A DNA stretch of 64,000 nucleotides from Candidatus Egerieisoma sp. (GTDB lineage Bacteria > Bacillota > Clostridia > UBA1212 > UBA1255): NCBI GenBank assembly GCA_045580735.1, contig JAZNOJ010000095.1, forward strand, positions 14,787 through 78,786, given 5' to 3'. The first letter of the stretch is position 1, and each line of letters opens with the position of its first letter. The position numbers and the translations under genes are program-made. The notes below the pieces were generated by a model, which made no database searches, was not told the origin of the DNA, and worked only from the letters and a program-made list of their open reading frames with translations. This document shows positions 1-8,781 of the stretch, piece after piece.

Positions 1-1129
1 CCTTAATTTTGAGGAGCAGTGGTCAAGGGTATTTGAAATAGATCCTGAAATTGTAATGATTACCGGTTGGAATGAGTTTAATGCAGGGCGATGGATAGAT
101 CCAAATGCTAATACTCAAACAATTTGTAATACATATCAGGTCGATATTAGTGATGATCAATTTAAATACGTTTACGTTGATTTATTTAGCCCGGAATATA
201 GTCGTGATATTGAACCTTTAAAAGGCTTTTACAAGGATAACTATTATTATCAAATGGTCAACAATATTAGAAAATACAAAGGTGTAAGGAAAATTGAGCA
301 AGGAACAGGCTCTAAGAATATAAATATGTCTGGTGATTTTGAAGAGTTTGATAATATAGGACCTGTGTTTTCTGATTCCATATATGATATACAGCATAGA
401 AACCATGAGTCTGTTGGAAGTGTAATTCAATATACAAATGCTACAGGAAGAAATGATATTGAATCTGCCAAGGTATCTAAAGTTGAAGATTATACGTATT
501 TTTATGTTAAATGTGCCGATGATTTTGTAGTGGATGATGGTTCAAATTGGATGAATTTATATATAGACAGTGATCAGTATTATTATACCGGATGGGAAGG
601 ATATGATTTTGTTGTTAATCGTTCAAGAACAAAAGGTAAAGTTTCTGTAGAAAGATTTGTTGATAATTCATGGAAATTTGAAAATGTTGGAGAGGCTGAA
701 TATACATTAAATGGATCTGAACTTGTTATCAAAATTAAATCAGAAATAATAGCTCTTAATGATCGCGATAATTTTGATTTTAAATGGGCCGATAATTCAA
801 CTGTAAATGGGGAAATTATGGAATTTATGGATTTAGGTGATACAGCTCCAAATTCACGTTTTAATTTTAGATATGTAAAAGAAAATGGCAATATTTCAGA
901 TTCGATTCTTCCGGGTGGAAAAACACCAGGGCCATATTCAACTGCTGCTCAAAAAGCTAAATTAGATAACAACATAATTCTGATTATCAGTATTGTAATT
1001 GGTGTTTTGCTAATTGGTGGTATTGTTTCTTTTGTTTTTATAAAAAAGAAAAAAAGTAGTTTGAATAAAGAACAGAGTACTGAAAAAAAAGAAATATTAG
1101 AAAATAAAGATGGTAATTTAAATACGTAG
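1..1129 (+). CDS. 5'-truncated membrane-anchored extracytoplasmic protein; glycosidase-like C-terminal portion plus beta-sandwich-like region and C-terminal TM anchor
   Basis: The frame of ORF 56..1129 stays open back to nt 2 (LNFEEQWSRVFEIDPEIVMITGWNEF...), so the gene begins left of the window. The ITGWNEF motif resembles the end of TIM-barrel glycosidase-like folds. A hydrophobic stretch IILIISIVIGVLLIGGIVSFVFI followed by KKKK lies near the C-terminus. Confidence 0.4.
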   Translation, partial: LNFEEQWSRVFEIDPEIVMITGWNEFNAGRWIDPNANTQTICNTYQVDISDDQFKYVYVDLFSPEYSRDIEPLKGFYKDNYYYQMVNNIRKYKGVRKIEQGTGSKNINMSGDFEEFDNIGPVFSDSIYDIQHRNHESVGSVIQYTNATGRNDIESAKVSKVEDYTYFYVKCADDFVVDDGSNWMNLYIDSDQYYYTGWEGYDFVVNRSRTKGKVSVERFVDNSWKFENVGEAEYTLNGSELVIKIKSEIIALNDRDNFDFKWADNSTVNGEIMEFMDLGDTAPNSRFNFRYVKENGNISDSILPGGKTPGPYSTAAQKAKLDNNIILIISIVIGVLLIGGIVSFVFIKKKKSSLNKEQSTEKKEILENKDGNLNT

Positions 1130-1236: not shown

Positions 1237-1980
1237 TTACTTTCTGGTATCTTTTATGCCATTTAAAATTATATTTCTTACTTTTTGTATATCAGATTTT
1301 GGAAAAGGCTTCACATCTGATAATGGATATGGAATATCTAGCTCCTTGTACTTATTAACACCCATCGTATGATATGGAAGAACGTCTAAAGCTTTAATAT
1401 TTCGAAATTTGCCTATGAAAAATCCTAAATTATACAAATCATCTTTATTATCTGTGTATCCCGGAACCACAACATGCCTTATCCAAACAGGTATGTTTTT
1501 TTGAGATAAATATTCCAAAAAAGATAAAACATTTGAATTTGGACTTCCTGTGAGCTTTATGTGAGCATCATTGTCTATATGCTTAATATCTAAAAGAATT
1601 AAGTCAGTCAATGCTAATAGGGTGTCCAATTTTTCTATAAATGAAATATTATTATGATTAAAAGTAATTCCTGATGTATCGATACATGTATGTATATTTT
1701 TTTTCTTAGCTAGAGAAAAAAGCTCGATTAAAAAATCTATTTGCAAAAGAGGCTCTCCGCCACTTACAGTAATTCCACCCCTTGAGTAAAAAGATCTGTT
1801 TTTGTTATATATTTCTAATATTTCAGCAGGTGACATTTCAGTGCCTGAATTTAAGTCCCATGTATCTGGATTATGGCAATATAAGCAACGAAGTGGACAG
1901 CCCTGCATAAAAATTACTAATCTTATGCCGGGACCGTCCACCGTTCCAAATGATTCAAATGAATGAATACGACCTTTCAT
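1237..1980 (-). CDS. pflA: pyruvate formate-lyase activating enzyme (radical SAM glycyl-radical activase)
   Basis: N-terminal GTVDGPGIR and radical-SAM cluster motif CPLRCLYCHN (CxxxCxxC). Length is 247 aa. It lies directly downstream of the pfl genes on the same strand. Confidence 0.93.
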   Translation of the reverse strand: MKGRIHSFESFGTVDGPGIRLVIFMQGCPLRCLYCHNPDTWDLNSGTEMSPAEILEIYNKNRSFYSRGGITVSGGEPLLQIDFLIELFSLAKKKNIHTCIDTSGITFNHNNISFIEKLDTLLALTDLILLDIKHIDNDAHIKLTGSPNSNVLSFLEYLSQKNIPVWIRHVVVPGYTDNKDDLYNLGFFIGKFRNIKALDVLPYHTMGVNKYKELDIPYPLSDVKPFPKSDIQKVRNIILNGIKDTRK

Positions 1981-1986
1981 AATTTT

Positions 1987-2229
1987 TTAGATTGAGTCAT
2001 GAAAGGTTCTTGAGATAACTTCGTCTTGTTGCTCTTTTGTGAGCTTGATGAAGTTTACTGCGTATCCGCTTACTCTTACAGTAAGCTGGGGGTATTTTTC
2101 AGGATGAGCCTGAGCATCAAGCAATGTTTCCTTTGTGAAAACATTTACATTGAGATGATGCCCATTTTTTTGAACATAACCGTCTAGTAAAGAAACTAAA
2201 TTGTCAATTTGATTTTCAGTAGCTGCCAT
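1987..2229 (-). CDS. stand-alone glycyl-radical domain protein (GrcA/YfiD-like), equivalent to the C-terminal about 75 aa of PFL
   Basis: [76 protein letters not shown] matches the PflB C-terminus, including the radical glycine motif RVSGYA. The preferred start is ATG 2229 because GGAGGT (2242..2237) sits 8 nt upstream. The ORF-track start at 2244 is a TTG inside that RBS. Confidence 0.85.
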
Positions 2230-2251
2230 TTTAATTACCTCCAATTTTTAA

Positions 2252-4357
2252 TTATTGTCTATCTAAGCCTTCAAAAAGTGTAGGAGAACAACATGCTCCG
2301 CTTGCACATTCTGATTCTAAATCTATTTCTAAATCGCCTGTAAATACGTGTAAATCCTTACCGAGTGCATCCGGAATGATAGAGAAGGTATTTGAAATAC
2401 CATCTTGTGCATCTCTGAATGGAAGCTTTGAAACAGAAGAAAGAGATGAAACAGCACCATGTGAGTCTCTCTTGTGCATTGGATTTGCGCCGGGCGCAAA
2501 AGCTTCTCCTCTTTTTCTGCCGTCTGGTGTAGAGCCTGTATTTTTTCCGTAAACAACATTAGATGTGATAGTCAAAATAGATGTTGTCGGAATACTGTCT
2601 CTGTATGTGTGGTTCTTTCTAATATGCTCCATAAATACATGGACAAGATCATGAGCAATTGAGTCAACTCTATCATCATCATTTCCGTATTTAGGGAAGT
2701 CACCCTCAACCTCATAATCAACAGCAAGTCCTGCTTCGTTTCTGATAACCTTAACCTTAGCATATTTGATAGCGGAAAGTGAGTCGGCAACAACGGATAA
2801 ACCTGCTATACCTGTAGCAAACCAACGTGTTACATTTTTGTCATGAAGTGCCATTTGAAGCTTTTCGTAGCAATATTTATCATGCATATAGTGTATAATA
2901 TTTAGCATATTTACATATACATTCGCAAGCCACTGAAGCATTGTGTTGTATTTCTCGACAACTTCATCATAATCAAGATACTCAGATGTGATTGGTCTGT
3001 ATTTTGGTCCAACCTGTTCTCCTGTAATTTCGTCAACACCACCGTTAATTGCATATAAAAGACATTTTGCAAGATTTGCACGTGCTCCAAAGAATTGCAT
3101 TTCCTTACCAAGTCTCATTGAAGAAACACAGCAGGCGATGGCATAGTCATCTCCATGATGGAAACGCATCAAGTCATCATTTTCATATTGAACAGATGAG
3201 GTTTCAATAGATATTTTTGCACAGAATCGTTTGAAATTGATAGGCAATCTTGTAGACCATAGGACTGTGAGATTAGGCTCAGGTGCAGCACCCAGATTTT
3301 CAAGAGTGTGTAAATATCTATATGATGTTTTTGTTACCATATGGCGTCCATCAATTGCAACGCCACCAATGGATTCTGTTACCCATTGAGGGTCGCCGGA
3401 GAATAAAGCATTATATTCTGGAGTTCTGGCAAATTTTATTAATCTTAATTTCATTATGAAATGGTCGATTAGCTCCTGAAGCTCGCTTTCTGTATATACG
3501 CCTTTGGCTAAATCTCTTTCTGCATAAATATCTATGAAGGTTGATGTACGGCCCAATGACATTGCCGCACCATTTTGCTCCTTAACAGCAGCTAGATATC
3601 CAAAATAAAGCCACTGAATAGCCTCTTTTGTATCCTTTGCAGGCTCAGATATGTCATAGCCATAGCTTTCTGCCATTTTCTTTAAATCCTGCAACGCTCT
3701 TATTTGTTCGGATAATTCTTCTCTGTCACGAATAACCTGTGAATACATTGCAGAACGAGTAGTTGCCTTTTGTTCAAGCTTTTCTTCTATCAGTCGGTTT
3801 ACACCATAAAGAGCAACTCTTCTGTAGTCACCTATAATTCTTCCACGACCATACGCATCAGGAAGTCCGGTAATAATGTGGTTTGAACGACATGCTCTCA
3901 TTTCTTGAGTATATGCGTCAAATACTCCTGCGTTGTGAGTTTTTCTGTGAATTGTAAAAAATTCCTTAATTGAAGGATCTATTTCATAACCATTGTCTTT
4001 ACAAGCTTTTTCAGCCATTCTAATACCGCCATAAGGCATTAATGCTCTTTTTAAAGGCTTGTCAGTTTGTAGTCCTACAATTTGTTCTTTATCTTTATCT
4101 ATATATCCAGGTCCATGTGATGTGATTGTTGATATTGTTTTGGTGTCCATATCCAAAACACCACCAGCTTCTCTTTCTTGCTTCATTAGGTCAAGAACCT
4201 GTTTCCATAAGTCAATAGTTCTTTGAGTAGGTGCTGATAAGAAATCCTCATTTCCGTCATAGGGCGTAAAATTATGTTTTATAAAACTTCGTACATTGAT
4301 TTCATGCACCCATGTTCCTTTTTCAAAACCATCCCAAAATTCATGTGAATAATTCAT
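2252..4357 (-). CDS. pflB: pyruvate formate-lyase (formate C-acetyltransferase) large polypeptide lacking the glycyl-radical domain
   Basis: PFL-like along its whole length, with the active-site Cys-Cys (IACCVSSM). Homology ends at ...[10 protein letters not shown], followed by a non-PFL 33-aa tail ([33 protein letters not shown]) and TAA. The start is trimmed to ATG 4357 ([11 protein letters not shown]) because GGGAGC lies 7 nt upstream. The 34-codon extension in the ORF track is hydrophobic junk. Confidence 0.9.
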
Positions 4358-4472
4358 AATATGCGCTCCCGTATTTTTTTTATTAGGCAAGTTTTTGCCC
4401 GTTGCTATTATACTAAATTTTTTTCTCAAAATAAAGAGTAAAATAAAGGTGATTTGCATAAAATATTTACGA

Positions 4473-4504
4473 ACGAGTTTTATGTAATAGTTGACAAAAC
4501 TCGT
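4473..4504. promoter_or_regulatory. perfect 9-bp inverted repeat ACGAGTTTT-N14-AAAACTCGT bracketing the -35 box of the glgB promoter (candidate operator)
   Basis: Arms at 4473..4481 and 4496..4504 are exact reverse complements. The right arm overlaps TTGACA. Confidence 0.35.
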
Positions 4505-4519
4505 AGAATAAGTTAAAAT
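4491..4519 (+). promoter_or_regulatory. sigma-A type promoter of the glg operon
   Basis: TTGACA (4491..4496), 17-nt spacer, TAAAAT (4514..4519). It lies about 55 nt upstream of the glgB ATG. Confidence 0.6.
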
Positions 4520-4573
4520 TTATTAATAAATTTTTAAAGATTTTATACAATAAAATACTAAGGGGGCGGCGAG

Positions 4574-6490
4574 ATGGCTGATTATATTTCTCCACAGAAA
4601 AGTATGGATTTTATAAAAGGCACTTGTACAGATTGTTATAAGTTTCTTGGTAGCCGCAAACATTCTAAAACTATTAATGCAGAGAAGGTAAACGGAATTC
4701 AGTTCTCAGTTTGGGCACCTGCAGCTAAAAGCGTGCGCGTTGTAGGTGATTTTAATAATTGGGGAAATGATGATGTTGTTTCAGGGGTAATGCAAAGGGA
4801 CGATTATGGTTTCTGGACAGTTTTTTATATGGATGCTTGCTGTGGTCAAAGATATAAATATAAAATTGAACATCATAGTGGAAGATGTGTATTGAAATCA
4901 GATCCTTACGCATATACGAGTGAAAAAAGGCCTAATACAGCATCTATTATATATGAAAAAACACCATATAAATGGACTGATTCAAAGTGGATTAAGCATA
5001 GAGAAGCTACGGATTTTATTCATAGTCCTGTAAATATATACGAAATGCATTTAGGCTCATGGAAGAGAGATTATGAAAATTCACAAACTGAAGATGGTTT
5101 TATGAATTATAGACAAATCGCAGATGAGCTTGCTCCTTATCTAAAGGAGATGCATTACACTCATGTAGAGGTAATGCCTGTATCTGAGCACCCACTTGAT
5201 GCGTCGTGGGGATATCAGACAATGTGTTATTATAGTATAACGAGTCGTTATGGTACACCAGATGATTTTTGCTATTTTGTAAATAGATTACACCAGGAAG
5301 GAATAGGTGTTATTGTTGACTGGGTACCAGGTCATTTTTGTAAAGATGATCCGGGCTTGTATAACTTTGATGGCGATTGGACATACGAACATTCTGAAGC
5401 TGCTTATAGAGAAAATATATTATGGGGCACTGCCAATTTCGATTTAGGAAAAGGTTCAGTGCGAAGCTTTTTGATTTCAAATGCATTATATTTCTTTAGA
5501 GAATATCACATTGATGGACTTAGAGTAGATGCTGTTGCGAATATTATTTATCTTGATTATGAAGGACTTTCTTCTGTGCCTCTTAAAAATGTCTATGGAG
5601 GTAAAGAGCGTTTAGAGGGTGTTGAATTTTTAAGAATGTTAAACACAGCAGTATTTGCTGAAATTAAAAATCCGTTAATGATTGCAGAGGATTCTAGTGC
5701 ATGGCCGATGGTTACAAAGCCTGTATACCTCGGAGGACTTGGTTTTAATTTCAAATGGAATATGGGATGGATGAACGATTCTTTAAAATATATGGGATAC
5801 GATCCAATCTACAGAAGATGGCATCATGATAAATTGACATTTTCAATAATGTATGCTTTCAGTGAGAATTACGTGCTTCCGTTATCTCATGACGAGGTTG
5901 TTCATGGAAAGAAAACCATAATAGATAAGATGTATGGCGATTATGGCACAAAATTTGCTGCATTAAGAGCATATTATCTTTATATGATGACTCATCCGGG
6001 AAAAAAGCTTTCATTTATGGGTAATGAATTTGCACCTTTTCTTGAATGGCGTGAGTATGAGGCCTTGGAATGGAAAATGTTAAATTATCCTACCCATGCT
6101 TCTGTAAAGGATTATGTAAAAGCTTTAAATGAATTTTATATTCAAAATAAAGCTCTTTGGGAAGTAGACGATTCGTACAGTGGATTTGAGTGGATAGATG
6201 CGAATAATTCAGAGCAAAGTATTTTTTCATTTATTCGTTATTCAAAGGATCCTGAAGATTTTCTCGTTGTGGTATGTAATTTTACACCGGTCGAATATAA
6301 AAATTTCAGATTGGGCATTTCAAGATTTGCGGATTATGAAAAGGTATTTTCCTCGGTGGGAGAAGATAACAATGATAAATTGATAAGACCGTTACCGGAA
6401 GGAAAGAACGGCTTAACGTTTAGTTTAGAATTTAATTTACCTGGATACGGAGCTATGGTATTTAAACCTATCTTCCGTAAAAAAATATAA
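4574..6490 (+). CDS. glgB: 1,4-alpha-glucan branching enzyme (GH13)
   Basis: 638 aa with GH13 catalytic motifs DWVPGHF, GLRVDAVA and AEDSS. The RBS is AAGGGGG. Confidence 0.93.
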   Translation: MADYISPQKSMDFIKGTCTDCYKFLGSRKHSKTINAEKVNGIQFSVWAPAAKSVRVVGDFNNWGNDDVVSGVMQRDDYGFWTVFYMDACCGQRYKYKIEHHSGRCVLKSDPYAYTSEKRPNTASIIYEKTPYKWTDSKWIKHREATDFIHSPVNIYEMHLGSWKRDYENSQTEDGFMNYRQIADELAPYLKEMHYTHVEVMPVSEHPLDASWGYQTMCYYSITSRYGTPDDFCYFVNRLHQEGIGVIVDWVPGHFCKDDPGLYNFDGDWTYEHSEAAYRENILWGTANFDLGKGSVRSFLISNALYFFREYHIDGLRVDAVANIIYLDYEGLSSVPLKNVYGGKERLEGVEFLRMLNTAVFAEIKNPLMIAEDSSAWPMVTKPVYLGGLGFNFKWNMGWMNDSLKYMGYDPIYRRWHHDKLTFSIMYAFSENYVLPLSHDEVVHGKKTIIDKMYGDYGTKFAALRAYYLYMMTHPGKKLSFMGNEFAPFLEWREYEALEWKMLNYPTHASVKDYVKALNEFYIQNKALWEVDDSYSGFEWIDANNSEQSIFSFIRYSKDPEDFLVVVCNFTPVEYKNFRLGISRFADYEKVFSSVGEDNNDKLIRPLPEGKNGLTFSLEFNLPGYGAMVFKPIFRKKI

Positions 6491-6507
6491 AGTAAGGAGT
6501 GTTATAT

Positions 6508-7653
6508 ATGGCAAAGAAAAACATGGTGGCAATGATACTTGCCGGGGGACAAGGAAGCAGACTAGGCCTAATGACAAAACAAGTAGCTAAGCCTGCAGTG
6601 GCATTCGGGGGAAAATACAGGATTATCGATTTTGCATTGAGTAATTGCTGTAACTCAGGTATAGATACTGTTGGTATTCTTACTCAATATAGACCTCAAA
6701 AGCTTAATGCACATATTGGAATAGGTACTCCGTGGGACATGGATAGAGTCCATGGCGGCGTGGCTATGTTACCTCCATATATGAGTGAAGCAGGAGGTGA
6801 CTGGTATAAAGGTACTGCAAATGCTATTTACCAAAATTTAAGCTATCTAGACAGCTATGATCCCGAATACGTTTTAATTCTTTCAGGGGACCATATCTAC
6901 AAAATGGATTATAGAGCAATGCTTAAGAGACATAGAGAATCAAATGCTGATGCGACAATAGCTGTAATTGATGTTCCTCTTTCAGAGGCTTCAAGATTCG
7001 GTATAATGCATACCAACGAAGAAGGTGTAATTACGGCATTTGAAGAGAAACCAAAAGAGCCTAAAAGCACATTGGCTTCGATGGGAATTTATATTTTCAC
7101 ATATGATAAGCTAAAGAAATACCTCATATCGGATAATGAAAATCCAAACTCAGATAATGACTTCGGAAAAAATATTATTCCATCAATGCTAAATAATGGT
7201 GAAAAGATGGTTGCATACAGCTTTAGCGGATATTGGAAGGATGTTGGAACAGTAGAAAGCTATTGGGAAGCACATATGGACTTATTAAGTGCTGATAATG
7301 ATGTTCACCTGTTTGCAGATGATTGGAAAATTTACACTGATAACGAAGCAAGACCATCTCAGTATATTGGACCTCAAGCAAAACTTGAAAATTCTATTGT
7401 GACTGAGGGTTGCGTTATTTATGGAGAAATAGTAAACTGTATTGTATTTCCTGGTGCCTACATAGGGCATAATACTAGAATTGAAAATTCTATTATTATG
7501 GAAAATGTTGTGATAGAGGACAATGTTATCATCAGTAAAAGTATTATTCTTGAGGATGCAAAGATAAAATCCCATAATGCGATAGGTGATGGTAAGGAAA
7601 TAGTAGTAGTTGATAGAGGCAAGGTTGTCGAATCAAATGCCAAAATGGAATAA
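6508..7653 (+). CDS. glgC: glucose-1-phosphate adenylyltransferase, catalytic subunit
   Basis: Carries the [10 protein letters not shown] nucleotide-binding loop and a C-terminal left-handed beta-helix repeat region. The start is trimmed to ATG 6508 because AAGGAG sits 9 nt upstream. Confidence 0.93.
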
Positions 7654-7665
7654 GGGGGTAGTGTT

Positions 7666-8781
7666 ATGATTAAGGATTATATGGCAATAATAAATTTAGA
7701 CGAGAGTGAGAATGATATAAGAAGTCTTACAACAAATAGACCCATAGCATCAATTCCTCTTGGAAGCAGATACAGAGTTATAGACTTTATGCTTTCAAAT
7801 ATAGTAAATTGTGGTATTCAAAATGTTGGTATTTTTTCCGCAACAAATTCTAGATCATTGTCTGACCATATTGGTACAGGAAAATCATGGGATTTAAACA
7901 GAAAAATTGATGGATTATTCTTATTTAACCATGCATTGTGTGATTTTGTTAATAATGATTCAAAGCTTTTGAAAAATAACATGGAGTACATTTACAGAAG
8001 TAAAAGTGATAGTGTAATATTGACATCTTCATATATGGTGTGTAATATGGACATTGCTGAAGCTGTAAGTGCACATGAAAAGTCCGGTGCTGAAATGACA
8101 GTTGTATATACAAAGACAGAAAATGCTGACACAGAATTTATAAATTGTTATACAATGAATGTTAATGAAGAAACCGGTAAGCTAGAAGGCGTAGGCAAGA
8201 ATATAGGCTTTAGCAAAAATGCTAATATATGCATGGAAATGTTTATAATGAAAAAGGAAAAGCTCGTTGAGCTTATATATAGAAGTGCTCATAATATGAG
8301 AGCAGGAAGCTTTTACAACATTATATTCAACGAAATTGGCAAAATGGATATTAACACATATTGCTATGAAGGCATGGTATTTTGTATAAACAACATAACA
8401 GCCTATTATAAAACGAATATGAAATTGCTTGATCCTGATATTAGTGATGCATTCTTTAGGTCAGATAGACCAATTTATACAAAGATTAAAGATGAGCCGC
8501 CAACACTCTATGTAAAGGGCTGTAAGGTTGCGAATTCTTTAATTGCAGATGGATGTATTATAAAAGGTTCAGTTCAGCATTCTGTTGTAGGACGTTATGT
8601 AGATATAGAAGAAGGAGCAGAGCTTAATAATTGTATTATTTTGCAAAATGTACGTATTCACAAGGGTGCGAAGCTATCTAATGTCATAATCGATAAAAAT
8701 GTGGATATCGAAGGCGACACCGAGCTTAGAGGAAATGAAACATTTCCACTTGTGATAGAAAAGAAAAACTTATTTAAATAA
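7666..8781 (+). CDS. glgD: glucose-1-phosphate adenylyltransferase, GlgD regulatory subunit
   Basis: A GlgC paralogue that lacks the GGxGxRL loop (MAIINLDESENDIRSLTTNRP...). It follows glgC, as is typical in Firmicutes. Confidence 0.88.
   Translation: MIKDYMAIINLDESENDIRSLTTNRPIASIPLGSRYRVIDFMLSNIVNCGIQNVGIFSATNSRSLSDHIGTGKSWDLNRKIDGLFLFNHALCDFVNNDSKLLKNNMEYIYRSKSDSVILTSSYMVCNMDIAEAVSAHEKSGAEMTVVYTKTENADTEFINCYTMNVNEETGKLEGVGKNIGFSKNANICMEMFIMKKEKLVELIYRSAHNMRAGSFYNIIFNEIGKMDINTYCYEGMVFCINNITAYYKTNMKLLDPDISDAFFRSDRPIYTKIKDEPPTLYVKGCKVANSLIADGCIIKGSVQHSVVGRYVDIEEGAELNNCIILQNVRIHKGAKLSNVIIDKNVDIEGDTELRGNETFPLVIEKKNLFK

Follow-up and report, generated by a model that had tools for sequence, protein, structure and literature searches.

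In many gut anaerobes the central route from pyruvate to formate is catalysed by pyruvate formate-lyase (PFL), an enzyme whose glycyl radical oxygen destroys. We examined a PFL locus in a 64,000-nucleotide stretch of DNA from Candidatus Egerieisoma sp. (assembly GCA_045580735.1, contig JAZNOJ010000095.1, positions 14,787 to 78,786 of the forward strand), which is called the window below and is numbered from its first letter. At this locus the catalytic body of the enzyme and its glycyl-radical domain are encoded as two separate chains, followed by the gene for the activating enzyme. The original prediction, made from the sequence alone, had read these genes as a two-chain glycyl radical enzyme, and its coordinates and factual statements all proved correct. 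The features of the locus are as follows.

4357..2252, minus strand: pflB core gene, 701 residues, without the glycine-radical loop (ATG 4357, TAA 2254..2252; listing of open reading frames and sequence)
3139..3119, minus strand: active-site loop IACCVSS, with Cys409-Cys410 as the counterpart of E. coli C418/C419 (sequence)
2353..2255, minus strand: acidic C-terminal tail of the large chain, 33 residues, not found in canonical PFL
2335..2315, minus strand: 9-nt direct repeat with a 3-nt spacer, GATTTAGAA-ATA-GATTTAGAA (21 nt), encoding DLEIDLE (sequence)
2308..2261, minus strand: Cys motif module within the tail, C684-ASGA-C689-C690-SPTLFEGLD699 (alignment of homologues)
2242..2238, minus strand: Shine-Dalgarno site GGAGG of the small open reading frame, with an 8-nt spacer to the ATG (sequence)
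2229..1987, minus strand: grcA3-type gene for the putative 80-residue glycyl-radical subunit (ATG 2229, stop 1989..1987; NCBIfam, Pfam)
2076..2059, minus strand: glycine-radical loop RVSGYA, with Gly55 as the counterpart of E. coli Gly734 (sequence and alignment)
1980..1237, minus strand: pflA, radical S-adenosylmethionine (radical-SAM) activating enzyme, 247 residues (TIGR02493, Pfam)

The large chain is a PflB that stops short of its radical domain. Its sequence carries the Cys-Cys loop and has no glycine loop, and Pfam and the PflB equivalog model TIGR01255 both end before that loop. It scored 1086.9 bits against TIGR01255 (cut-off 994.2) over profile positions 2-665 of 744. The radical glycine that a PflB bears on the same chain, in the region of about 666-744 of the model, is not on this one; the missing part is supplied by the neighbouring 80-residue open reading frame (ORF), which covers model positions 663-743. 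Pfam divided the domains in the same place: the large chain has PFL-like at residues 19-604 and then no more than the front half of Gly_radical (profile positions 1-48 of 106), and the small ORF has the second half (positions 49-106 of 106). In alignments to E. coli PflB, the large chain covered residues 10-680 (E 4e-289), its canonical homology ending at ...IIPDALGKD before the 33-residue tail, and the small chain covered residues 683-758, being equivalent to about 676-759. The break is clean, because the large chain stops at E. coli residue 680 and the small chain starts at 683, and this bears out the claim that PFL homology resumes where it was broken off. Among 54 aligned homologues the IACCVSS loop is invariant, as is most of the large chain.

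The small ORF begins 22 nt after the stop of the large chain, in a different frame and with its own GGAGG and ATG, and it contains RVSGYA, all as described from the sequence. It matched the NCBIfam model for GrcA3 (NF038360) end to end with 165.2 bits (cut-off 158, E 2.6e-49; residues 4-80 against model positions 2-78 of 78), and it has the hallmarks of that family, a small stand-alone protein of about 80 residues with RVSGYA, a motif that is invariant in the GrcA3 alignment. Relatives of the small protein are labelled GrcA or GrcA3 at NCBI, under the family name 'autonomous glycyl radical cofactor'. The alignment extended to residues 68-126 of E. coli GrcA, RVSGYA included. The protein fell below the cut-off of the enterobacterial GrcA model (TIGR04365, spare_glycyl; 90.1 against 170, residues 21-79 on model positions 67-125), and the N-terminal extension of about 60 residues that enterobacterial GrcA carries is not present on it. 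It also fell below the cut-off for GrcA2 (NF008341; 101.2 against 145).

The third gene, pflA, starts 6 nt past the stop of the small ORF, and its assignment was confirmed by TIGR02493 (314.9 bits, cut-off 231.75) and by the Pfam domains Radical_SAM and Fer4_12; its translation holds the radical-SAM motif CPLRCLYC (CxxxCxxC). No recognisable Shine-Dalgarno site precedes it (window 1980-1989, …TAAAAAATTATG), and the spacing in relatives is similarly tight, at 4-24 nt. The 6-nt spacing together with the lack of a recognisable Shine-Dalgarno site suggests that translation of the activase is coupled to that of the radical subunit.

We then asked of relatives whether they carry the same split and the same tail, and both recur. 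The best 120 homologues of the large chain (84-95% identity), taken from NCBI, ENA, JGI and Logan assemblies and bearing names of Clostridia, Oscillospiraceae and Ruminococcaceae, were almost all 696-710 residues long, and nearly all had this type of tail at their end, with a few acidic residues added. The best 120 homologues of the small protein were 90-97% identical, and 100 of them were exactly 80 residues long. Longer calls for the small protein were considered as fusions and rejected, as they stem from out-of-frame upstream starts; two large-chain homologues of 805 and 821 residues (P0003 and P0007) were rejected as fusions as well, their length being due to internal assembly duplications.

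A genome scan with one genome per species gave at least 597 matching stretches, of which the best 80 were taken. The split was found in 74 of these 80 loci: 70 were parsed by script, and four of the eight that the script did not parse were confirmed by tblastn, with the large chain just upstream. The others were two fused genes, three loci cut at a contig end and one small gene standing alone (L053). The taxa represented include Acutalibacteraceae, Oscillospiraceae, Lachnospiraceae, Ruminococcus (including R. flavefaciens), Erysipelotrichaceae, Christensenellaceae, a Spirochaetales spirochaete and Melainabacteria, and the Lachnospiraceae among them include Sellimonas caecigallum, which is cultured and has a complete genome, as well as Blautia and Dorea-type metagenome-assembled genomes (MAGs). 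Cultured strains of Olsenella and Thermophilibacter (Coriobacteriia) have a truncated PflB of 693-698 residues, ending ...GELDLDALGVDIQIENPAPDCGCC. All three genes are conserved as a set, in the order core, small gene, pflA at almost every locus. Since hundreds of relatives share the architecture, the split goes far beyond chance, and on comparison of these sequences it is real and not peculiar to this genome.

These data bear directly on the alternative held out in the original prediction, a decaying pseudogene or an assembly artefact. The finding does rest on one contig, and some relatives (the two just named) do have assembly duplications, so that one might suspect that sequencing or assembly went wrong, or that a pseudogene arose recently, in this one genome. 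However, independent assemblies from many studies, hosts and phyla share the stop, tail and small ORF, purifying selection acts on the tail (below), and the split is conserved across genomes of several phyla together with the Shine-Dalgarno site and ATG of the small ORF. Pseudogene decay and artefact are thereby excluded, and an error confined to one genome has next to no probability.

The distance between the two ORFs bears on another explanation, in which the cell does end up with a single PFL chain, through programmed frameshifting, bypass of the stop codon or post-translational ligation across the 22-nt gap. The two ORFs lie only 22 nt apart in different frames, and two relatives are truly fused, one of them with an in-frame Cys insert. 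Across the loci, however, the distance from the stop of the large chain to the ATG of the small chain ranged from -17 to +337 nt, all three frame offsets were seen, and 24 loci have an intervening ORF. Recoding is not credible because the gap and the frame offset vary in this way. The small ORF, moreover, nearly always has its own Shine-Dalgarno site and ATG (77 of 79 sequences, that is, 78 related loci and the window, have a Shine-Dalgarno-like site within 22 nt of its start) and keeps a length of exactly 80 residues in 100 of the best 120 homologues. An intein would need a far longer sequence than the tail. We found no Rfam element in the window and no terminator between the genes. We consider a recoded or ligated single chain very improbable.

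Of the two fused relatives, L075 (a Eubacteriales MAG) encodes a canonical PFL of 744 residues with no insert, and L044 (a Treponemataceae MAG) encodes a protein of 794 residues with an in-frame, Cys-containing insert, GNCMSCD, between ALGKD and the radical domain. Because L044 carries this insert in a fused chain, a Cys insert is possible without a split.

The small gene also occurs by itself. In L053, a Gastranaerophilales MAG, neither pflB nor pflA lies within 4 kb of the grcA3-type gene in either direction. In IMG/VR, stand-alone GrcA3-like ORFs, 73-82% identical to the small protein of the window, lie on phage-like contigs of up to 333 kb (L085-L103), most of them with no pflB nearby. One such ORF (L097, 3992-4225) has an NrdD-like anaerobic ribonucleotide reductase on one side and an NrdG-like activase on the other, an arrangement that recalls the spare part Y06I of phage T4. 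On two of these viral contigs (L091 and L103) the small ORF is immediately upstream of a pflB, not downstream.

The 33 codons at the end of the large chain had been called unrelated to PFL, and the 124 nt or so between the two stretches of PFL homology had been taken as inserted sequence that supplies a stop, a ribosome-binding site and a start. The tail indeed has no counterpart in canonical PFL, and all three signals are present. The sequence is not a mere spacer, however: in relatives the tail is a conserved, Cys-bearing module. In an alignment of 54 sequences, residues C684, G687, C689, F695 and D699 of the tail are invariant and about a dozen more are at least 90% conserved, among them A688, P692, T693, L694, E696, G697 and L698. 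PTLFEGLD is identical in 22 loci, yet every synonymous codon is used at every position. Because synonymous codons turn over under an unchanged PTLFEGLD, purifying selection acts on the tail peptide and not on the DNA. The first part of the tail alternates hydrophobic and acidic residues, as in an edge beta-strand, and the second part has two to three cysteines followed by a nearly invariant P-T. The 9-nt duplication noticed in the tail is indeed there; GATTTAGAA-ATA-GATTTAGAA is found a single time in the window and never in 100 shuffles, and it encodes D-L-E-I-D-L-E, a motif that relatives carry as GD[IL][DE][VI][DE]L[DE].

The tails fall into three types. Type A, which is window-like with C..GAC..PT, is found in Oscillospiraceae, Acutalibacteraceae and unclassified Clostridia or Eubacteriales MAGs, and type B, ...EPDCACCEPN or ...PDCGCC, in Lachnospiraceae and Coriobacteriia. 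Type C, in Ruminococcus and others, ends early at D.xVFxGDLDLDKL..E and has no cysteines, and about 190-340 nt separate it from the small gene. This gap encodes a third small ORF (ORF3) of about 45-85 residues, in 24 loci (L026, L029, L035, L037, L038, L040-L043, L046, L047, L050, L051, L056, L059, L061-L064, L066, L068-L070 and L072). The N-terminal 35 or so residues of ORF3 are homologous to the first helix and strand of GrcA3 (hhalign probability 94.3%, E 1e-7, with weak NCBIfam matches), and homology to the Cys motif of type A tails lies at its C-terminus (hhalign probability 93.9%, E 1.5e-7). A Cys module is thus present in 69 of the 70 parsed split loci, in the tail in 45 and in ORF3 in 24.

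Neither the tail nor ORF3 had a significant match to any family in searches of Pfam, NCBIfam and PDB profiles. When a tail profile was run against 1.84 billion cluster representatives, it had 13 matches, all of them PFL tail pieces or ORF3-like proteins. As the profile searches return only these, the module belongs to the split system and to nothing else detectable. Five proteins (P0241, P0244, P0245, P0250 and P0252) have an unrelated N-terminus, in some cases signal-peptide- or transmembrane-like, joined to a type A tail; such short tail-bearing proteins may be chimeric assemblies or gene-calling artefacts. The idea that the tail, or the 'TVNSTDC' of ORF3, is a degenerate glycine loop, and that PTLFEGLD derives from NLVSLLDGY, was tried and rejected: hhalign of tails against GrcA3 found no similarity, and the match between ORF3 and GrcA3 goes no further than the first helix and strand.

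Taken as a whole, the comparative evidence favours the two-chain reading of the original prediction: the locus would encode a functional, naturally two-chain PFL from a three-gene operon of pflB core, grcA3 and pflA. We put the probability of this reading at roughly 0.8. The large chain would depend on the small chain because it has no glycine of its own. From the sequences and by analogy with E. coli, we infer that the two chains would be active in trans.

A competing explanation is that the large chain is a dead or repurposed remnant and the small protein a GrcA-like spare part for a full-length PFL elsewhere in the genome. Such a role is what the NCBI family name expresses, it would suit the small genes without an adjacent pflB in the Gastranaerophilales locus and on the phage-like contigs, and the search of the organism's own genome for further PFL genes, which found none, was confined to the 64-kb window. 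A dead gene is unlike what we see, however, for the large chain is 84-88% identical across many genera, with an invariant catalytic loop and a score that passes the PflB equivalog cut-off. Nearly all loci keep the same gene order, and what the break takes away is precisely the domain encoded by the gene next to it. Nor does the adjacent PFL keep a radical domain, as the main PFL does where a spare part of the E. coli type operates. We regard the remnant explanation as improbable.

Several observations nevertheless weigh against a two-chain enzyme with a Cys module as we describe it. A second full-length pflB is excluded for the 64-kb window only. One split locus, L028, has no Cys module. The two to three cysteines per chain are too few by themselves for a metal site, and no partner ligands were identified. 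An AlphaFold2 model of the large chain, built with 54 close homologues, had a mean pLDDT (predicted local distance difference test) score of 53.9 and a disordered C-terminus, which is too poor to place the tail; Foldseek returned matches to known glycyl radical enzymes only, in a PDB copy up to 2026-04-08 that lacks the entry 38lb described next.

The best PDB matches of the large chain were 38lb (739 residues) and 38la (687 residues), both named 'Formate acetyltransferase', at 1172.7 bits. Both are recent, since they are not in the PDB copy ending 2026-04-08. We rebuilt the sequence of 38lb from alignments and found it to be 100% identical to a native protein of 718 residues (P0254), whose gene is followed after 42 nt by an 80-residue Gly_radical gene (74% identical to that of the window) and then by pflA. 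Its closest named relatives are Olsenella and Thermophilibacter, and its tail is Cys-bearing (...GECDMCEM...PDCACAAD...), of the PDCAC type and not the type A of the window. 38la is the same chain cut directly after ALGKS. A large chain of the split type has therefore already been solved with and without its tail; the small protein matched no chain of either entry. The locus in the window thus joins many others in a family to which curators have given a name and which is under structural study. A literature search turned up no paper on PFL in a naturally split, truncated or two-subunit form, on GrcA2 or GrcA3, on the tail or on 38lb and 38la, and a June 2026 review of glycyl radical enzymes describes YfiD/GrcA in the spare-part role only (PMC13450708). 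What we did not find described are the apparently obligate two-chain nature of the system, its breadth across phyla and the near-universal Cys module, including the ORF3 of the Ruminococcus type.

Among the closest known systems are E. coli GrcA (YfiD) and phage T4 Y06I. Like the small chain of the window, these are small RVSGYA proteins homologous to the C-terminus of PflB; they are activated by PflA and insert into a PFL body without a working glycine (PMC8683613, PMC13450708), as the small chain of the window would too. E. coli PflB, however, has its own radical domain, with GrcA as a backup encoded elsewhere, whereas the PflB of the window is without that domain. In E. coli GrcA, a disordered N-terminus of 60 residues is important for binding and activation, and the small chain of the window has none; conversely, the large chain of the window has an acidic Cys-bearing tail that sets it apart from the E. 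coli system. The name GrcA3, too, denotes an autonomous spare part, whereas we read the small protein here as the probable radical subunit of a PflB that lacks the glycine.

A two-piece PFL engineered from E. coli provides an experimental precedent for such a division of the enzyme. The truncated body tPFL(1-695), combined with YfiD, had wild-type activity once activated (Andorfer et al. 2021, PMC8683613), but binding was too weak for detection by isothermal titration calorimetry and activation was poor (PMC8683613). As in the window, the body stops short of strand beta10, and the radical domain comes on a second chain. Unlike this artificial pair, the natural split falls about 15 residues earlier (E. 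coli residue ~680 against 695), so that the small chain brings the preceding helix with it, and the natural large chain adds a conserved tail. The earlier cut, the small chain's own helix and the acidic Cys module may together solve the binding problem of the engineered pair.

Multi-subunit glycyl radical enzymes offer a second comparison. Like the locus described here, 4-hydroxyphenylacetate decarboxylase (gamma subunit) and benzylsuccinate synthase (beta and gamma subunits) combine a large glycyl radical chain with small Cys-containing polypeptides encoded beside it and an activase (PMC13450708). There, however, the large chain retains the glycine, and each small subunit uses at least four cysteines to bind [4Fe-4S] clusters, whereas in the window it is the small chain that bears the glycine, and no more than two to three cysteines occur in the Cys module. 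The searches of Pfam, NCBIfam and PDB profiles showed no sequence similarity of the tail or ORF3 to these small subunits.

How a two-chain PFL of this kind would work can be outlined largely from the E. coli system. The 701-residue chain would provide the barrel and the Cys-Cys loop, and the 80-residue chain a complete C-terminal glycyl-radical domain. PflA would install the radical by hydrogen abstraction at Gly55 of the small chain, probably reaching the glycine there without unfolding of the large chain. By analogy with E. coli PflB and the GrcA/YfiD complex, the small chain would then dock with its glycine loop facing Cys409/Cys410 of the large chain, and catalysis would proceed as in PflB. 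The oxygen-labile part of the enzyme would in that case be a replaceable unit of 80 residues, and the large chain need be neither remade nor unfolded. The acidic, Cys-bearing tail may be a third integral element that tethers or gates the small subunit, perhaps, as a guess, through a metal site or a thiol/disulfide switch.

More speculatively, the system could be a machine of three modules, namely the body, the radical subunit and the Cys module, the last serving as a metal- or redox-dependent latch on docking, exchange or quenching, and gut phages could exploit it by carrying the small piece. The third module would then take different forms: the C..GAC..PT tail, the PDCACC of Lachnospiraceae and Coriobacteriia, and the Ruminococcus ORF3, which copies the N-terminal helix and strand of GrcA3. 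We hold this extension only tentatively and think it less probable than not.

The neighbourhood of the operon contains further genes. Divergent from the pflB core, on the plus strand at window 4574-8781, are ORFs of 638 (4574..6490), 384 (6499..7653) and 371 residues (7666..8781), which by their translations resemble glycogen genes, a GlgB-type branching enzyme followed by GlgC/GlgD-type subunits of ADP-glucose pyrophosphorylase. The 216-nt intergenic region 4358..4573 presumably carries the promoters of the pflB core and of these glycogen-like genes. Downstream of pflA and on the opposite strand (window 56-1129, plus strand), an ORF of 357 residues has a hydrophobic C-terminal segment followed by a Lys-rich tail.

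If the two-chain reading holds, a radical carried on a separate chain of 80 residues would be widespread among gut bacteria such as Blautia and Dorea-type Lachnospiraceae, Ruminococcus, Oscillospiraceae and Olsenella, with the Cys-bearing tail or ORF3 as its almost universal companion. For annotation, the large chain would be neither a pseudogene nor a complete PFL, and the small gene would encode a subunit and not a repair factor alone. The family would also provide a natural system for two questions of the field, namely the docking of GrcA-type proteins and the access of the activase to the glycine (PMC8683613, PMC13450708). Should the three-module reading be true as well, these organisms would have a glycyl radical enzyme whose cofactor subunit is swappable and under regulation. 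Because the natural split form is so widespread, the 'spare-part' idea known from E. coli would in these organisms be the normal design.

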